This document shows positions 3,037 to 14,159 of a DNA stretch of 24,813 nucleotides, in pieces. A program made the translations under genes and the position numbers. How positions within the stretch are numbered: position 1 is the stretch's first letter; every line of letters begins with the position of its first letter. The notes under the pieces were generated by a model. That model did not search any database and had not been told where the DNA came from. It saw only the letters and a program-made list of their open reading frames with translations. This stretch comes from Lysobacterales bacterium (GTDB lineage: Bacteria > Pseudomonadota > Gammaproteobacteria > Xanthomonadales > SZUA-36), in NCBI GenBank assembly GCA_041306925.1, contig JBFZEL010000399.1, forward strand, positions 1 to 24,813. Reading direction: 5' to 3'.

Positions 3037-3563
3037 AAACTCCTGCGGCAGCGGCACCGGCAAACTTCTCCGCCTTGCGCAATTTCATTGCGATGTGCGG
3101 CAAAGCCGTCTCCTGGCTGACCCTCGTGATGGTGTTGCTGACCTTCGTCGTCGTGATACTTCGCTATGGCTTCAACCTGGGCTGGATCTGGCTGCAGGAA
3201 ATCCTGACCTATCTTCACGTGCTGGTGTTCTGTGTCGTTGCAGCATGGACACTGCAACAGGACGGACATGTGCGCGTGGATATCTTTTATGCCCGTATGA
3301 CGAAAAAAAACAAGGCCTGGGTAGACCTGCTGGGAAGCCTGATGCTGCTCGTGCCGCTGTGCGTTTTTACCCTCGTCATTGCCTGGCCCTATGTCGCCTA
3401 TTCCTGGAAGTTGCTGGAGTCCTCGCGGGAAGCGGGTGGTTTACCGCTGGTATTCCTGCTCAAGTCACTGATCATGGTGATGCCCGCGCTGTTGCTCGGC
3501 CAGGCCGTTGTCAACATCAACGATGCCTGGAGAACCTTGCGATACACAGGGCCAGCGGCTTGA
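3030..3563 (+). CDS. TRAP transporter small permease subunit (DctQ family)
   Basis: Four hydrophobic segments with VVILRY..F, WLQE, GHVRVDIFY and SREAGGLP motifs. The start overlaps the DUF2782 stop (ATGGTAG); an alternative ATG lies at 3093. Confidence 0.88.
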   Translation: MVETPAAAAPANFSALRNFIAMCGKAVSWLTLVMVLLTFVVVILRYGFNLGWIWLQEILTYLHVLVFCVVAAWTLQQDGHVRVDIFYARMTKKNKAWVDLLGSLMLLVPLCVFTLVIAWPYVAYSWKLLESSREAGGLPLVFLLKSLIMVMPALLLGQAVVNINDAWRTLRYTGPAA

Positions 3564-3576
3564 TTTCCCGCATGAT

Positions 3577-3733
3577 CCAGGGAAACCCTGATTGATACGG
3601 AGATTCTGCGCTACCAGGATGGTCCACCATTTTCAGTGACTGCAAATCATTGCAAGTGACGTAAAACAAAAAATGTCGTTTCTGTTTTGTCTGCCCTGAT
3701 CAGGCAGCGACGAATTAGTCAGGGTTTGCCTGG
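3577..3733. repeat. 157-bp intergenic element bounded by 20-bp imperfect inverted repeats
   Basis: Left end CCAGGGAAACCCTGATTGAT (3577-3596) versus reverse complement of the right end (3714-3733), CCAGGCAAACCCTGACTAAT: 17/20 identical. The identity of the element is unknown. Confidence 0.7.
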
Positions 3734-3738
3734 CTTGC

Positions 3739-4107
3739 CTATTTTTTATCTTTGAGCCTGCTGGCGAGATCTGCGAACGGGTTAAAGGTGGCGGCTTTTT
3801 CCTGTTCCGCAGGGGCCATATCCCCGTAGACGGCGTCGATAAGGCGGGAATGTTCATTATCGTGGCAATAAACGCAGAGCAATTCCCAGTTACTGCCATC
3901 CTCCGGATTATTGTCGTGGTCGTGGTCACGGTGGTGAACGGTCAACTCCTGCAGGTTGTCCCTGTCGAATTCGCGCGCGCAGCGGCCACAAATCCAGGGG
4001 TACAGCCTGAGCGCCCTGGCCCGGTAGCCCTGCTCGCGTTCGCCGGAAGCGCGCCGGGCATCGGCGACGATTCGATCCAGTTTGTCCGGTGATTTTTCCT
4101 TTTTCAT
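3739..4107 (-). CDS. yajD: HNH nuclease, YajD family
   Basis: GYRARALRLYPWICGRCAREF..LTVHHRDHDHDNNP.DGSNWELLCVYCHDNEH: CxxC...HH...N...CxxCH zinc-binding HNH pattern characteristic of YajD. Confidence 0.88.
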   Translation of the reverse strand: MKKEKSPDKLDRIVADARRASGEREQGYRARALRLYPWICGRCAREFDRDNLQELTVHHRDHDHDNNPEDGSNWELLCVYCHDNEHSRLIDAVYGDMAPAEQEKAATFNPFADLASRLKDKK

Positions 4108-4116
4108 AAAGACCTG

Positions 4117-5975
<1,859 letters not shown>

Positions 5976-10994: not shown

Positions 10995-11118
10995 GGCGCC
11001 AACGAGGCACAAGCGAACCGCAACCGTCCAGCGAATCCCGGGATTTCTGATCGGCGGCGCCAGCCCGTGCTGCCACCCGCGTTTGACCATTGCTATCTAA
11101 ACAACATGACTGCCAGAA

Positions 11119-11147
11119 CCACCGGGGCGCGTAGCGCGTCCCGGTGG
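11119..11147. terminator. GC-rich hairpin between convergent trkA and the small acidic gene
   Basis: CCACCGGGGCGCG-TAG-CGCGTCCCGGTGG, a 13-bp stem with one G-U pair on the + strand. No strong U tract on either side. Confidence 0.4.
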
Positions 11148-11177: not shown

Positions 11178-11441
11178 CTACCAATCTTTGCCAAAATCAA
11201 GTTCGTCGGTGTCTTCAAGCTCGGAATACAGATCCTTTAGTTCTTTTCTTCGCTCAATCTTGCGCCGGGTGCTAAAACGATAATCAGATTCGTCTGGATC
11301 TTCCCAGTCGGCGCTGTAAAAATCCTTTGACAAGTGCTTGACGTTGTCCAGATCATCGTCCAGTTCATCTTCAAAGTCGTCGAAGTCATCAAAAGAATCC
11401 GAATCAAAATCCGTGTCCTTCGGTCCGCGTTTACTCGCCAT
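11178..11441 (-). CDS. Small highly acidic protein with a C-terminal RRKIERRKEL helix (PA3496-like, tentative)
   Basis: 87 aa with 23 Asp + 9 Glu. GGAG lies 8 nt before the ATG and a near-consensus sigma70 promoter lies upstream, supporting a real gene. Confidence 0.8.
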   Translation of the reverse strand: MASKRGPKDTDFDSDSFDDFDDFEDELDDDLDNVKHLSKDFYSADWEDPDESDYRFSTRRKIERRKELKDLYSELEDTDELDFGKDW

Positions 11442-11481
11442 TTTTACTTCTCCAATCTGAGGTAAAAGATCCTCGACTCGA

Positions 11482-11510
11482 ATTAAAAATCCTTTTTATC
11501 TTTATGTCAA
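11482..11510 (-). promoter_or_regulatory. Near-consensus sigma70 promoter of the small acidic gene
   Basis: On the minus strand: TTGACA (11510-11505), 17-nt spacer, TTTAAT (11487-11482). Confidence 0.75.
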
Positions 11511-11514
11511 GATT
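11497..11514. promoter_or_regulatory. Putative MarR (PecS/MftR-type) operator 1, covering the -35 of the small acidic gene
   Basis: TATCTTTATGTCAAGATT is an imperfect 18-bp palindrome, 15/18 identical to the reverse complement of operator 2. Confidence 0.7.
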
Positions 11515-11661
11515 AATGCTGCGAAATAGTCATTCGTATTTATCCAGGCCGAACTTCTTCAGAAAGCACGGCCCGCCAGGTAGTCAGCGGCGCAATCATG
11601 CATGCCTGTCACGCCATACTGGACAGTCACATCGGCCGCCAGGAACGGCCCAATTCACTAT

Positions 11662-11679
11662 TACCTTGACATGAAGATA
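11662..11679. promoter_or_regulatory. Putative MarR operator 2, upstream of marR
   Basis: TACCTTGACATGAAGATA is symmetric at 12 positions (TAnCTTnAnnTnAAGnTA). Confidence 0.75.
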
Positions 11680-11680
11680 T

Positions 11681-11721
11681 TTAACGTATTTGGGAAAAAG
11701 GTTATACTCCACGTCATGATA
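11681..11721 (+). promoter_or_regulatory. Putative marR promoter plus weaker operator 3 over the start codon
   Basis: TTAACG (11681-11686), 16-nt spacer, TATACT (11703-11708). ATACTCCACGTCATGATA (11704-11721) matches 8/12 operator positions. Confidence 0.5.
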
Positions 11722-12207
11722 AAAGACATCATCGATGACCTTCAGAACGAATGGAACGTGCAGCGACCCGACCTCAACACCGAACCGATGGGAGTGGTAC
11801 TGCGTATCCAGACACTGGCAAAGATCCTGGGGAATCAGACCGCAGCGACATTGCAGGAATTTGATTTGCATTGGTGGCAATACGATGTCCTGTCGACGCT
11901 CAGACGCCAGGGTAAGCCCTTTATCATGGCCGCCACCGAATTGGCCACAGCCAACATGCTCACATCCGGCGCAATGACCAATCGGATTGACCACCTGGAA
12001 GAGGACAAGCTGGTGCGCCGGATCAAGGACCACAACGACGGGCGCCGGGTGCTGGTGCAACTGACCAACAAGGGGCTCAACCTGGTTGAACAAGCGACCG
12101 AAGCGCGGTTCGAAACGGCGACGTGTGCGCTCGAAAGCCTGAGCGCCCCCCAGAGAGAATCGCTCAACAGTCTGTTACGCCTGGTACTGACTGCCCAGAC
12201 AAGCTGA
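11716..12207 (+). CDS. MarR family regulator, urate-responsive (UrtR: HucR/PecS/MftR/TamR-like) subfamily
   Basis: N-terminal D..D.L...W...RPDL extension, YDVLSTLRR, SGAMTNRID and D..DGR winged-helix motifs. W13, D57, R64 and R90 keep the D+7/D+33 spacing of HucR D73/R80/R106. The start at 11716 is preferred over the ORF-track 11602. Confidence 0.88.
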   Translation: MIKDIIDDLQNEWNVQRPDLNTEPMGVVLRIQTLAKILGNQTAATLQEFDLHWWQYDVLSTLRRQGKPFIMAATELATANMLTSGAMTNRIDHLEEDKLVRRIKDHNDGRRVLVQLTNKGLNLVEQATEARFETATCALESLSAPQRESLNSLLRLVLTAQTS

Positions 12208-12269: not shown

Positions 12270-14159
12270 TCAGCTACGGGGAGTTTTCCTGTGAAAGTCC
12301 GAGGCCACGCGCAATTTCCGCATGATGGAACGTTTCTTGCGGTGATGTCCCTGCATACGCCTGAGGATACCGTCCAGCATTTTCACCGCTTCGATGACGT
12401 GGTCACCCTTGTTCAGCATCACGGCCTCCGCTTCCTGCGCCATGGCCGCATCCGTGATTTCGGCTCGCGATGCATGACCCTGCTTGGTCAGACCCTCCAG
12501 TACCTGGGTCGCCCAGACCACGGGCACGTGCGCCGACTCGCAAACCCACAGGATTTCCTCCTGGACCTCGGATAGACGTTCAAAACCGCATTCCACGGCC
12601 AGGTCACCGCGTGCGATCATGACACCGCAAGCCGGAAATTTCAGGGCCTCAAGCAGGATGGCGGGCAGGTTGGCAAACCCCCGCTTGGTCTCGATTTTCA
12701 GGATCACGCCCATGTCCAGACGGTCAAGTTTTTGCAGGTGCTGGTATAAGGCGCGGACGTCATCGGGATCATTGGTAAATGACAGGCCAACCATGTCGGC
12801 GTGGCGCACTGCGAACTCGAGATCCTGCAGGTCCTTGATGCTGAGGGCGGCCAGTTTCAGCTTGGTGTCAGGCAGATTGACGCCCCTGTTACCCTCCAGC
12901 TTTTCCACCGTTTTCCGGGTATGGGTGATACGAACCTGCAATTGGTCCGCGCTGCGCTTCTCGATGATGCCGCCAATACGGCCATCGTCAAAAAATATCG
13001 GTTCACCGAGGCGGGCATCACGATAGACCTCGGGGATCGCCAGCGTAACCCTGCCTGGATTGAGCAATTCACCATTGCCGTCGTGGAATGCCGTTTTGCC
13101 GGGTTCGACCTTGGCCGAGATGAATAATGTATCGCCTTTGCGGATCAGGCAGACGCTGTCCTCCGGCGCCATGCCCGTGATTTCGGTTTCCGCGGCAGGG
13201 ATGCCTTTTTGTTCCGGCCTCATCAGGACGGTGCCATTGGCCACGTAAACGGTCTTTTTGCATTCAGCCCAGCAACCGTCTTCGCGCACCTCCCTGATAC
13301 GCCAACTTTTCCTCAATCCGCGAACATCGAGAACGCCGATTTTAGTGCCCACTTTCAAGCCTTCCAACCAGCCCCGGTCGAGGGCGAAAGTCGCTTCTGC
13401 CGCCGGCATCTCGGAAAAAGCCGTTTTGGCCGGGGTCAACCAGATCCGCGCCGGGCGCAGGAGTATGCCATCGGCCGCGCGCAATGGGCTGATCTTGAGG
13501 ACTGCCCGCTTGGTCTCCATCGGACCAAGCCGCAGTTTCGGGCCAGCGAGGTCCATGAGAATCCGGCAGGACCGGCCGGTCGACTGTTCGGCATTTCGCA
13601 GGGTATCGATCATCCTCGACCAGATTTCAGGGTAATCATGCGCGCAATTGATACGCATGCAATTCATACCGCCTTTGAGGAGCTCATGTACCATCAGGTA
13701 ATCGTCTGCGGCTTCGACCGGCATGGTCACGATGATGTGTGCCCTGCGGTTCCCCGAAAGATCACCGAACAGCGCGAGGGTGTTGCGTTCCAGGCAATCG
13801 GCGCCTGCATCGAAGGCTCTGCTGATTGCCGGAAAATCGGCGGCTTTTGCCTGACCGCTTAGCAGGTAAAGGTTGTGGATGACCGCATTGATGGTCGCCA
13901 TGACATGCGGTTCCGCCCTGCCAAGCGAAGACAGGCCCAGGCGTGCCAGCCTGTCTTGAAGTGGTTTGAGGTTTTCGCGCCGCAGGGCAAGGTAATGCAG
14001 CAGGTTTTCCGCACTTGGCAATCGCAGAGGTGGCAATCCCTGCAATGACTTCCGGTTTTGCTCCGCGCGCTTCCCAATCATCAGGCGCAGGGCTTCCATC
14101 TGCCTGATCAAGTCGTTGACGGTCCTGGGTTGTGATAACTGTTTCGAGGCAGATGTCAT
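12270..14159 (-). CDS. pyk: Pyruvate kinase, long atypical (Pyk2-type) form
   Basis: MRINCAH, DLAGPKLR, DDG, GVNLP, KIET, MIARGDLAVE, WATQVLE and VMLNKG motifs. About 130-aa N-terminal extension and no C-terminal allosteric domain. GGGAG lies 9 nt upstream. Confidence 0.92.
   Translation of the reverse strand: MTSASKQLSQPRTVNDLIRQMEALRLMIGKRAEQNRKSLQGLPPLRLPSAENLLHYLALRRENLKPLQDRLARLGLSSLGRAEPHVMATINAVIHNLYLLSGQAKAADFPAISRAFDAGADCLERNTLALFGDLSGNRRAHIIVTMPVEAADDYLMVHELLKGGMNCMRINCAHDYPEIWSRMIDTLRNAEQSTGRSCRILMDLAGPKLRLGPMETKRAVLKISPLRAADGILLRPARIWLTPAKTAFSEMPAAEATFALDRGWLEGLKVGTKIGVLDVRGLRKSWRIREVREDGCWAECKKTVYVANGTVLMRPEQKGIPAAETEITGMAPEDSVCLIRKGDTLFISAKVEPGKTAFHDGNGELLNPGRVTLAIPEVYRDARLGEPIFFDDGRIGGIIEKRSADQLQVRITHTRKTVEKLEGNRGVNLPDTKLKLAALSIKDLQDLEFAVRHADMVGLSFTNDPDDVRALYQHLQKLDRLDMGVILKIETKRGFANLPAILLEALKFPACGVMIARGDLAVECGFERLSEVQEEILWVCESAHVPVVWATQVLEGLTKQGHASRAEITDAAMAQEAEAVMLNKGDHVIEAVKMLDGILRRMQGHHRKKRSIMRKLRVASDFHRKTPRS

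Follow-up and report, generated by a model that had tools for sequence, protein, structure and literature searches.

The window analyzed here, a 24,813-nt stretch of contig JBFZEL010000399.1 from a Lysobacterales bacterium (GCA_041306925.1; forward-strand coordinates are used throughout), contains a divergent gene pair in which a MarR-family regulator is set back to back with a small acidic protein. The regulator gene, marR (11716-12207, + strand), encodes 163 amino acids (aa) and was placed in the UrtR/PecS-like branch from its Pfam MarR match, its PDB matches and an alignment of 49 orthologues. The acidic gene (11178-11441, - strand) is an open reading frame (ORF) for an 87-aa protein with 32 Asp and Glu residues, 14 Lys and Arg residues and an isoelectric point (pI) of 4.1. 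Two candidate operators without strand lie between the genes: operator 1 (op1, TATCTTTATGTCAAGATT, 11497-11514), which spans approximately -39 to -22 of the predicted acidic-gene promoter, and operator 2 (op2, TACCTTGACATGAAGATA, 11662-11679), which abuts the predicted marR -35 and occupies approximately -54 to -37 from the marR start.

The initial annotation had described these sites as 18-bp palindromes 165 bp apart that match at 15 of 18 positions in inverted orientation, and all of these features were reproduced. The start-to-start distance is 165 bp, the reverse complement of op1 is identical to op2 at 15/18 positions, and a repeat search reports the two as a 15-nt inverted repeat with 93% complementarity. 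Each site is an imperfect palindrome whose half-sites agree at 6/9 positions, with nearly perfect outer TA(T/C)CTT...AAGAT(A/T) segments. Scanning the 24.8-kb window with the degenerate pattern from that annotation, TAnCTTnAnnTnAAGnTA, and allowing up to two mismatches returned op1 and op2 as the sole matches (0.15 expected; two or more matches in 2/100 shuffles). The annotation had also stated that PecS-type regulators bind 18-bp palindromes of similar form, and the structural literature verifies this: UrtR operators follow the consensus TxxCTx8AGxxA in the promoters of both the target and the regulator gene, and the crystallised PecS operator PecO1 has the core TACCTTGAAGTCAAGATA (PMC11602129). 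Op2 matches the UrtR consensus at 6/6 positions and op1 at 5/6, its last base being T, with 6/6 in most relatives. The acidic-gene operator consensus across relatives, TATCTTGATGTCAAGATA, is 16/18 identical to PecO1. The loose UrtR consensus occurs four times in the window against 2.7 expected and is uninformative as a regulon probe. A weaker third palindrome at 11704-11721, proposed alongside the other two, exists in the sequence, yet it matches the consensus at only 4/6 positions and its palindrome is not kept in relatives, where the conserved bases are those of the marR -10 and ATG, so it was rejected as an operator.

A sequence search of the PDB with the marR protein gave 8ylh (7e-30) and 8ylf (1e-23) as best matches, followed by HucR (2fbk, 4e-10) and further HucR entries at about 1e-10. 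The 8ylh and 8ylf entries belong to the series deposited with a 2024 structural study of UrtR proteins covering PecS, MftR and HucR (PMC11602129). According to that study, UrtR proteins have an extra N-terminal helix (alpha0) carrying a ligand-contacting Trp (PecS W24, MftR W11, HucR W20), a ligand-binding Asp/Arg pair on alpha2 (PecS D68, R75), a His on alpha5 (PecS H142) that bonds the C6 carbonyl of urate and is one of four urate-binding residues called "absolutely conserved", a major-groove T/S-S-G-T element and three invariant DNA-binding Arg residues (PecS R101, R113, R121), and in PecS R43 also bonds urate (PMC11602129). Counting from the ATG at 11716, the window regulator has W13, D57, R64, TSGA (83-86), R90, R102, R110 and R131, which includes the complete W13/D57/R64/R90 signature noted in the initial annotation. 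Longer starts at ATG 11602 or 11671 were rejected: 11671 falls inside op2 and is absent in relatives, and the start was set at 11716 because protein conservation among relatives begins there.

We aligned 49 distinct orthologues from related loci with the three solved proteins (PecS, MftR and HucR). W13 is invariant and aligns with the Trp of 8ylh and 8ylf, D57 and R64 are present in 49/49 orthologues with the PecS-like spacing of seven residues, and the DNA-binding arginines R90, R102 and R110 are likewise invariant. The core element TSGA agrees with T/S-S-G-T at three of four residues, the fourth being Ala in 49/49. These comparisons assign the regulator to the UrtR (PecS/MftR/HucR) branch, in which PecS and MftR are its nearest solved relatives. 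The pocket is a different matter. The position at which PecS, MftR and HucR carry the urate-contacting His is Arg131 in 49/49 orthologues, and the position of PecS R43 is Gln32 in the window regulator. As judged from the alignment, the DNA-reading part is UrtR-type and the top of the ligand pocket has been rebuilt across the clade, so that the inducer is not deducible from the UrtR family and the ligand need not be urate. The earlier label of a "urate-type" MarR therefore holds for the branch and for the Trp/Asp/Arg residues and fails at the His and R43 positions, and the purine-metabolite or oxidative-stress switch built on it remains a guess.

Comparison with related loci indicates that the regulator and the acidic gene travel together. 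A genome scan with the MarR sequence found three metagenome-assembled genomes (MAGs) labelled Lysobacterales or Gammaproteobacteria, with regulators of 78-93% identity and a divergent acidic gene in 3/3. A metagenome scan with the acidic-family alignment gave 80 loci, and 88 loci entered the pair count. A MarR orthologue (58-100% identical) is divergent from the acidic gene in 65 of the 88 and lies upstream in tandem in six, while most of the remaining loci are on contigs too short to tell. One additional tandem pair consists of the family representative P0013, which exceeds the PA3496 family cut-off described below, behind a 76%-identical MarR, with a perfect operator 55 nt before the ATG. 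Over 91 related loci in all, the regulator adjoins the acidic gene in about 71. Since the flanking genes change between lineages, marR and the acidic gene are the conserved unit.

Within this unit, alignment of the intergenic regions of close relatives (the three MAGs) shows op1 and op2 as islands of identity in an otherwise unalignable spacer of 239-407 bp. The variable segment between them (11515-11661, no strand) has no conserved feature: the alignment of relatives contains no conserved structured RNA or small gene there, and the segment has no Rfam match. On the acidic-gene strand, the loci that were read share one order of elements: TATCTTGACATNAAGATA, whose end lies about 55 nt ahead of the ATG, then a 17-nt spacer, an AT-rich hexamer, a stem-loop, GGAGA and finally the ATG. 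Among 70 MarR-adjacent loci, 66 keep at least 10/11 operator positions outside the -35, and the op2 flanks are kept in relatives even when the central TTGACA is broken (TTCACA, TTGATA). Four MgtE-adjacent loci (L063, L075, L076 and L081) have no MarR within 0.9-2.6 kb; they retain TTGACA, the -10, the hairpin and the Shine-Dalgarno sequence, but match the operator flanks at only 4-5/11 positions. Loss of the flanks with a kept promoter is what one would expect of flanks that act for the regulator around a core that acts for RNA polymerase. In 321 kb of locus DNA we found 105 operator sites (up to two mismatches), all but 15 of them directly upstream of the acidic gene or marR; the 11 of these 15 that were followed up precede another gene or ORF. 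The initial annotation had called for a conservation check of the divergent pair and op1, which is borne out by the locus counts and by a nearly invariant op1. It had also named a sign of chance resemblance driven by TTGACA, namely relatives that keep the promoter without the CTT/AAGAT flanks, and this came out opposite, with flanks kept alongside MarR and lost in MarR-less lineages.

The two-site layout is confined to part of this family. In the window clade the intergenic region measures 232-407 bp and holds two operators, each with the ancestral geometry to its own gene. More distant clades mostly (about 27) have a 100-122 bp intergenic region with a single operator, which holds the acidic-gene -35 and abuts the marR -35 on the other strand. 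By this comparison the twin operators derive from a single ancestral site, shared by both genes, that split in this lineage. Looping between phased sites was considered and rejected, because the spacing between op1 and op2 varies from 123 to 298 bp in the window clade without helical periodicity and the distant relatives have one site. The earlier description of "twin operators" is thus accurate for the window clade, in which both sites are real, whereas distant relatives carry one shared site in a spacer of about 108 bp.

Promoter elements place op1 directly on the acidic-gene promoter. Its -35 is a perfect TTGACA (11505-11510, - strand) inside op1, followed after a 17-nt spacer by a predicted -10 of TTTAAT (11482-11487, - strand), a position kept in relatives as TTTAAT, TTCAAT, TAAAAG, TAAATT or TATATT. 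This agrees with the earlier claim that op1 sits on the TTGACA of a near-consensus divergent promoter, which scores 11/12 with a -10 that is imperfect at position 2; a consensus promoter scanner made no call here because the -10 lacks A at that position. The Shine-Dalgarno sequence GGAGAAG (11447-11453, - strand) lies 5 nt before the ATG, with GGAGA kept in about 70 relatives, and folding places a GAGG-N8-CCUC stem-loop (11459-11474, - strand) at the predicted 5' end of the acidic-gene mRNA. A hairpin occurs at the same place in 63/64 related untranslated regions (L006-L088) with at least seven different stem sequences, such as UGAGG/CCUCA, GAAGGCA/UGCCUUC, AGGUCU/AGACCU and GGGCCU/AGGCCU. This variation looks like compensatory change, and the hairpin may act in mRNA stabilisation or translation control. 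Downstream of the acidic gene, a GC-rich inverted repeat (CCACCGGGGCGCG-TAG-CGCGTCCCGGTGG, 11119-11147, no strand) has no T-tract, and a terminator scan found nothing; from its sequence it may still be a transcription stop. An antisense TTGACA-18-GATCAT (11327-11356, + strand; 10/12 to consensus) within the acidic gene is probably due to chance.

For marR, the promoter scanner matched TTTAAC (or TTAACG), a 16-17 nt spacer and TATACT (11680-11708, + strand). The TATACT -10 (11703-11708) ends 7 nt before the ATG and no Shine-Dalgarno sequence is present, and all relatives likewise have TATAMT or TATGAT 7 nt before the marR start and no Shine-Dalgarno sequence, consistent with a marR mRNA that is probably leaderless. 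The TTGACA within op2 was considered as the marR -35 and rejected, as there is no acceptable -10 at a distance of 15-18 nt and relatives do not keep the hexamer intact.

The acidic ORF has the hallmarks of a real gene under purifying selection. Its dN/dS against ten orthologues is 0.07-0.24, and among 73 distinct orthologous coding sequences (70-94 aa, median pI 4.5) length varies in whole codons while the start, stop and Shine-Dalgarno sequence are conserved. In the family alignment R59, R60, E63 and R64 are invariant and M1, D19, I62 and R65 nearly so. The acidic N-terminal part, two thirds of the length, has a low-confidence prediction and is followed by one conserved basic helix (S/T-x-R-R-K-I-E-R-R...LYS; STRRKIERR in the window protein) and a C-terminal Trp, which is the last residue of the window protein. 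AlphaFold2 run with the family alignment gave a mean per-residue confidence (pLDDT) of 63 and a predicted template-modelling score (pTM) of 0.26, peaking at residues 61-70 (block mean 88) within a predicted helix at 58-82. We propose that the acidic protein is a polyanion of the cytoplasm, disordered for the most part, with a single conserved basic helix.

The window protein has no match in Pfam, NCBIfam or PHROGs, and NF046101 does not match it at E<=1. This NCBIfam model (PA3496_fam, "PA3496 family putative envelope integrity protein") has 54 positions and a curated cut-off of 22 bits. Of 20 family representatives, 13 match it, three of them above the cut-off (P0006, 34.6 bits; P0012, 27.5 bits; P0013, 23.8 bits) and ten at 10-22 bits. 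P0006 is 44% identical to the window protein, and the match covers the whole conserved core (LSxDFYSTDW...ARRKIERRxELKxLYSQLDDWD). By these profile matches the acidic protein is best taken as a divergent relative of PA3496_fam, so that the microprotein called uncharacterised in the initial annotation is not wholly an orphan. A literature search for PA3496 or a small acidic envelope-integrity protein found PA3496 in expression tables only. An exhaustive HMMER search recovered only 20 clusters (50% identity) related to the acidic protein, of 71-94 aa, among 1.84 billion representatives.

Taken with the precedent of characterised UrtRs, these sequence comparisons make it likely that a UrtR-branch regulator represses the acidic gene until a ligand relieves the repression, and that it autoregulates marR, acting at PecO-type sites. 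In the proposed mechanism, a homodimer of the regulator would bind 18-bp palindromes of consensus TATCTTGA(T/C)(A/G)TCAAGATA. On op1, the dimer would mask the -35 of a strong sigma70-type promoter along with part of its spacer and so keep RNA polymerase off the acidic gene, and occupancy of op2 beside the marR -35 would give autoregulation. If the pocket works as it does in PecS and MftR, a small ligand bound at the dimer interface, in the pocket formed by W13' of the N-terminal helix, D57 and R64, would unwind TSGA at the start of the recognition helix and free the DNA. A burst of acidic protein would follow, translated from an mRNA that has a stem-loop at its 5' end and a strong Shine-Dalgarno sequence. 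Op1 is centred at about -30.5 and its promoter has a perfect -35, and for this reason we read its position as a repressor layout and not that of an activator. Without ligand UrtRs repress, and ligand frees them from the DNA by unwinding the core element (PMC11602129). Repression is what we infer from the promoter geometry together with this family precedent, and we likewise infer binding, ligand response and the mRNA 5' end from the sequence. Overall, the regulatory link is as well supported as sequence comparison allows.

Several observations weigh against this reading. TTGACA is common to operator and promoter, and promoter function alone explains part of the op1 conservation. The acidic-gene -10 lacks the key A at position 2 in the window clade, and the start site is a predicted one. 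The "absolutely conserved" urate-contacting His of PecS, MftR and HucR is gone from all 49 regulators, as described above. A regulator bound at op2, upstream of the marR -35 (about -54 to -37), could also activate, which leaves the sign of autoregulation uncertain. Finally, homologues of both proteins all come from metagenomes or MAGs of uncultured organisms, annotated as hypothetical or as MarR-family regulators.

The shared TTGACA raises the question of whether the palindromes are mere promoter architecture, a -35 in AT-rich surroundings that resembles a UrtR site by chance while MarR regulates something else. The hexamer is inside both sites, it is a plausible -35 in op1, and the loose UrtR consensus is not rare in the window (four matches against 2.7 expected). 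We nevertheless consider this explanation very improbable: 66/70 MarR-linked loci preserve the 11 operator positions beyond the -35, against 4-5/11 in MarR-less lineages that keep the promoter, op2 flanks persist where TTGACA is broken, the operator consensus is 16/18 identical to the crystallised PecS operator, and nearly all sites in related loci precede the acidic gene, marR or another gene or ORF close by. A regulator that binds these sites could instead activate or act dually, driving its own promoter from op2 or being needed for acidic-gene expression. PecS-type proteins are described as global regulators with positive and negative effects, and the centre of op2, near -45 from the predicted marR start, is a typical activator position. 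Op1, near -30, covers a perfect -35, whereas activator-dependent promoters usually have a poor one, and among characterised UrtRs such sites mediate repression that ligand relieves; activation or dual action is therefore unlikely.

Other explanations concern the acidic gene itself. The pair is the only constant unit across changing neighbourhoods and its small member is strongly acidic and mostly disordered, which would suit a protein that works with the regulator, as a polyanionic mimic of DNA or an anti-repressor that binds the winged helix and sharpens or resets the switch. Against such a role, some lineages keep the acidic gene with neither an adjacent regulator nor an operator, pointing to a regulator-independent role, and no likeness to known DNA mimics was found, as Pfam, PHROGs and NCBIfam yield only PA3496_fam; we rate the partner role quite unlikely. 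It would be extremely improbable, in our estimate, for the 87-codon ORF to be untranslated and the conserved unit to be a non-coding RNA or an extended regulatory region. The lack of a Pfam or NCBIfam match for the low-complexity window protein would fit that explanation, but the dN/dS of 0.07-0.24, the whole-codon length changes and the conserved start, stop and Shine-Dalgarno sequence of 73 sequences do not, nor does the clustering of invariant residues in one helix. Rfam gave no match at gathering score, and we attribute a lone sub-threshold mir-83 hit (E 0.042) to chance. The reading we prefer remains ligand-relieved repression of the acidic gene with autoregulation of marR.

The neighbourhood of the pair was surveyed in the related loci, in which the recurrent neighbour classes are TrkH, TrkA, CorA, MgtE, RimK, PK, MFS, SOD and Zn_protease. 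On the acidic-gene side these include TrkH or TrkA (14 loci), CorA (8), MgtE (6) and an Fe/Mn superoxide dismutase (4), and on the marR side RimK (8) and a RimB-like protease, PF05618 (4). Examples of flanking genes are found at L013 3277-4737, L065 3280-4392, L081 615-1976, L028 423-1334, L019 1769-2278 and L082 2209-2943. In five loci (L015, 204-1439, - strand; L027; L023; L077; L079), marR or the acidic gene is followed by an MFS transporter gene, with a shared strand in L015 and L077, the two loci compared by coordinates, an arrangement that recalls MftR-MftP.

Some loci contain further candidate targets. A very basic ORF of 42-46 aa, starting MP(F/P/A)(K/R/H)RKI and preceded by its own operator-promoter about 50 nt upstream, occurs in seven loci (L078, 712-852, + strand; L080, L086, L057, L051, L054 and L085). 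It sits before marR in tandem loci or convergently downstream of the acidic gene, is absent from the window and matches nothing in Pfam or NCBIfam. L027 has an inserted ORF of about 180 aa (2078-2671, - strand) that separates the acidic gene from marR, is preceded by a perfect operator, TATCTTGACATAAAGATA, and has no family match; for L017, L020 and L038 the sites alone were compared, and these loci have an extra operator site at the same distance.

The occurrence of three unrelated K+/Mg2+ transporter families beside a polyanionic protein is a suggestive but weak lead, with most of these genes convergent with the acidic gene, and the recurrent neighbours may hint at cation balance or the ribosome. 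One could imagine a UrtR-like sensor with a rebuilt pocket whose conserved output is a disordered polyanionic microprotein acting on cation balance or the ribosome (K+/Mg2+ transport or buffering), with some lineages adding an operator-controlled basic ORF. Such a role would explain why the pair recurs beside TrkH/TrkA, CorA, MgtE and RimK/RimB, and we hold it as a speculative and rather doubtful extension.

In the window itself, a remnant of trkH (11005-11097, + strand) comprising approximately the first 31 codons lies directly after trkA and is 52% identical to the N-terminus of L013 TrkH (E 1e-4). In relatives a complete trkH (486 aa) separates trkA from the acidic gene, and therefore the window lineage has lost trkH by a deletion of about 1.4 kb. 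On the other side, a pyruvate kinase gene (12270-14159, - strand) is convergent with marR and encodes 629 aa; bacterial pyruvate kinases are usually about 470-480 aa. In L008, a MAG locus, the acidic gene and marR (3333-3594 and 4001-4490) each align in two frames, apparent frameshifts for which assembly error is more likely than decay because operators and promoters are intact.

Work on UrtR regulators has treated them as sensors of urate from the host that turn on efflux pumps, uricase, virulence and secondary metabolism. The clade described here is widespread in uncultured, mostly sediment-dwelling gammaproteobacteria. Its DNA-recognition apparatus and operator are known from other UrtRs and nearly unchanged, while the replaced ligand residue and the constant, tiny acidic-protein target are new. 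If the proposed regulation is correct, the clade would offer a natural test of which pocket residues set UrtR ligand specificity, a tightly repressed, strong and compact promoter-operator pair, and, via the inducing signal and the regulatory link, an experimental entry into the PA3496-like small-protein family. Should the cation or ribosome role also prove true, it would be the first function for the PA3496 protein family.

Among known systems, the usual partners of a UrtR are missing from this locus. No uricase, PecM/EamA, MFS or methyltransferase gene lies beside the pair among the window ORFs that were scanned or had precomputed Pfam hits (several smaller ORFs were not scanned), and within that scope the initial annotation was right to report none. 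In related loci, EamA is not among the annotated recurrent neighbour classes (rarer classes were not scanned), and the divergent partner is the acidic gene in 65 loci. MftR-MftP of Burkholderia and HucR-uricase of Deinococcus share the UrtR fold family with the window regulator (8ylf, 1e-23; HucR 2fbk, 4e-10) and the operator consensus TxxCTx8AGxxA. Both use ligand-released repression of a divergent gene, an arrangement that by analogy would apply here as well, but the window pair has no adjoining MFS pump or uricase and the pocket His is replaced.

The closest solved relative of the regulator by sequence is PecS (8ylh, 7e-30), known with PecM from Dickeya, Pectobacterium, Agrobacterium, Vibrio and Klebsiella. 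The two regulators have in common the N-terminal helix with its Trp, the Asp/Arg pair and the same three DNA-binding arginines; their 18-bp operators are nearly identical (PecO1 TACCTTGAAGTCAAGATA and TATCTTGATGTCAAGATA here), and both systems are divergent pairs that share or duplicate operators. They differ in the regulator at H142 (Arg131 in 49/49), at R43 (Gln32 in the window) and in a core element of TSGA, not T/S-S-G-T, and in the partner, which here is an 87-aa cytoplasmic acidic protein and not the EamA-type efflux pump PecM. For the partner, the closest known family is PA3496_fam (NF046101), a family of small proteins whose model covers the conserved core and to which the acidic family described here adds a longer acidic N-terminal part.

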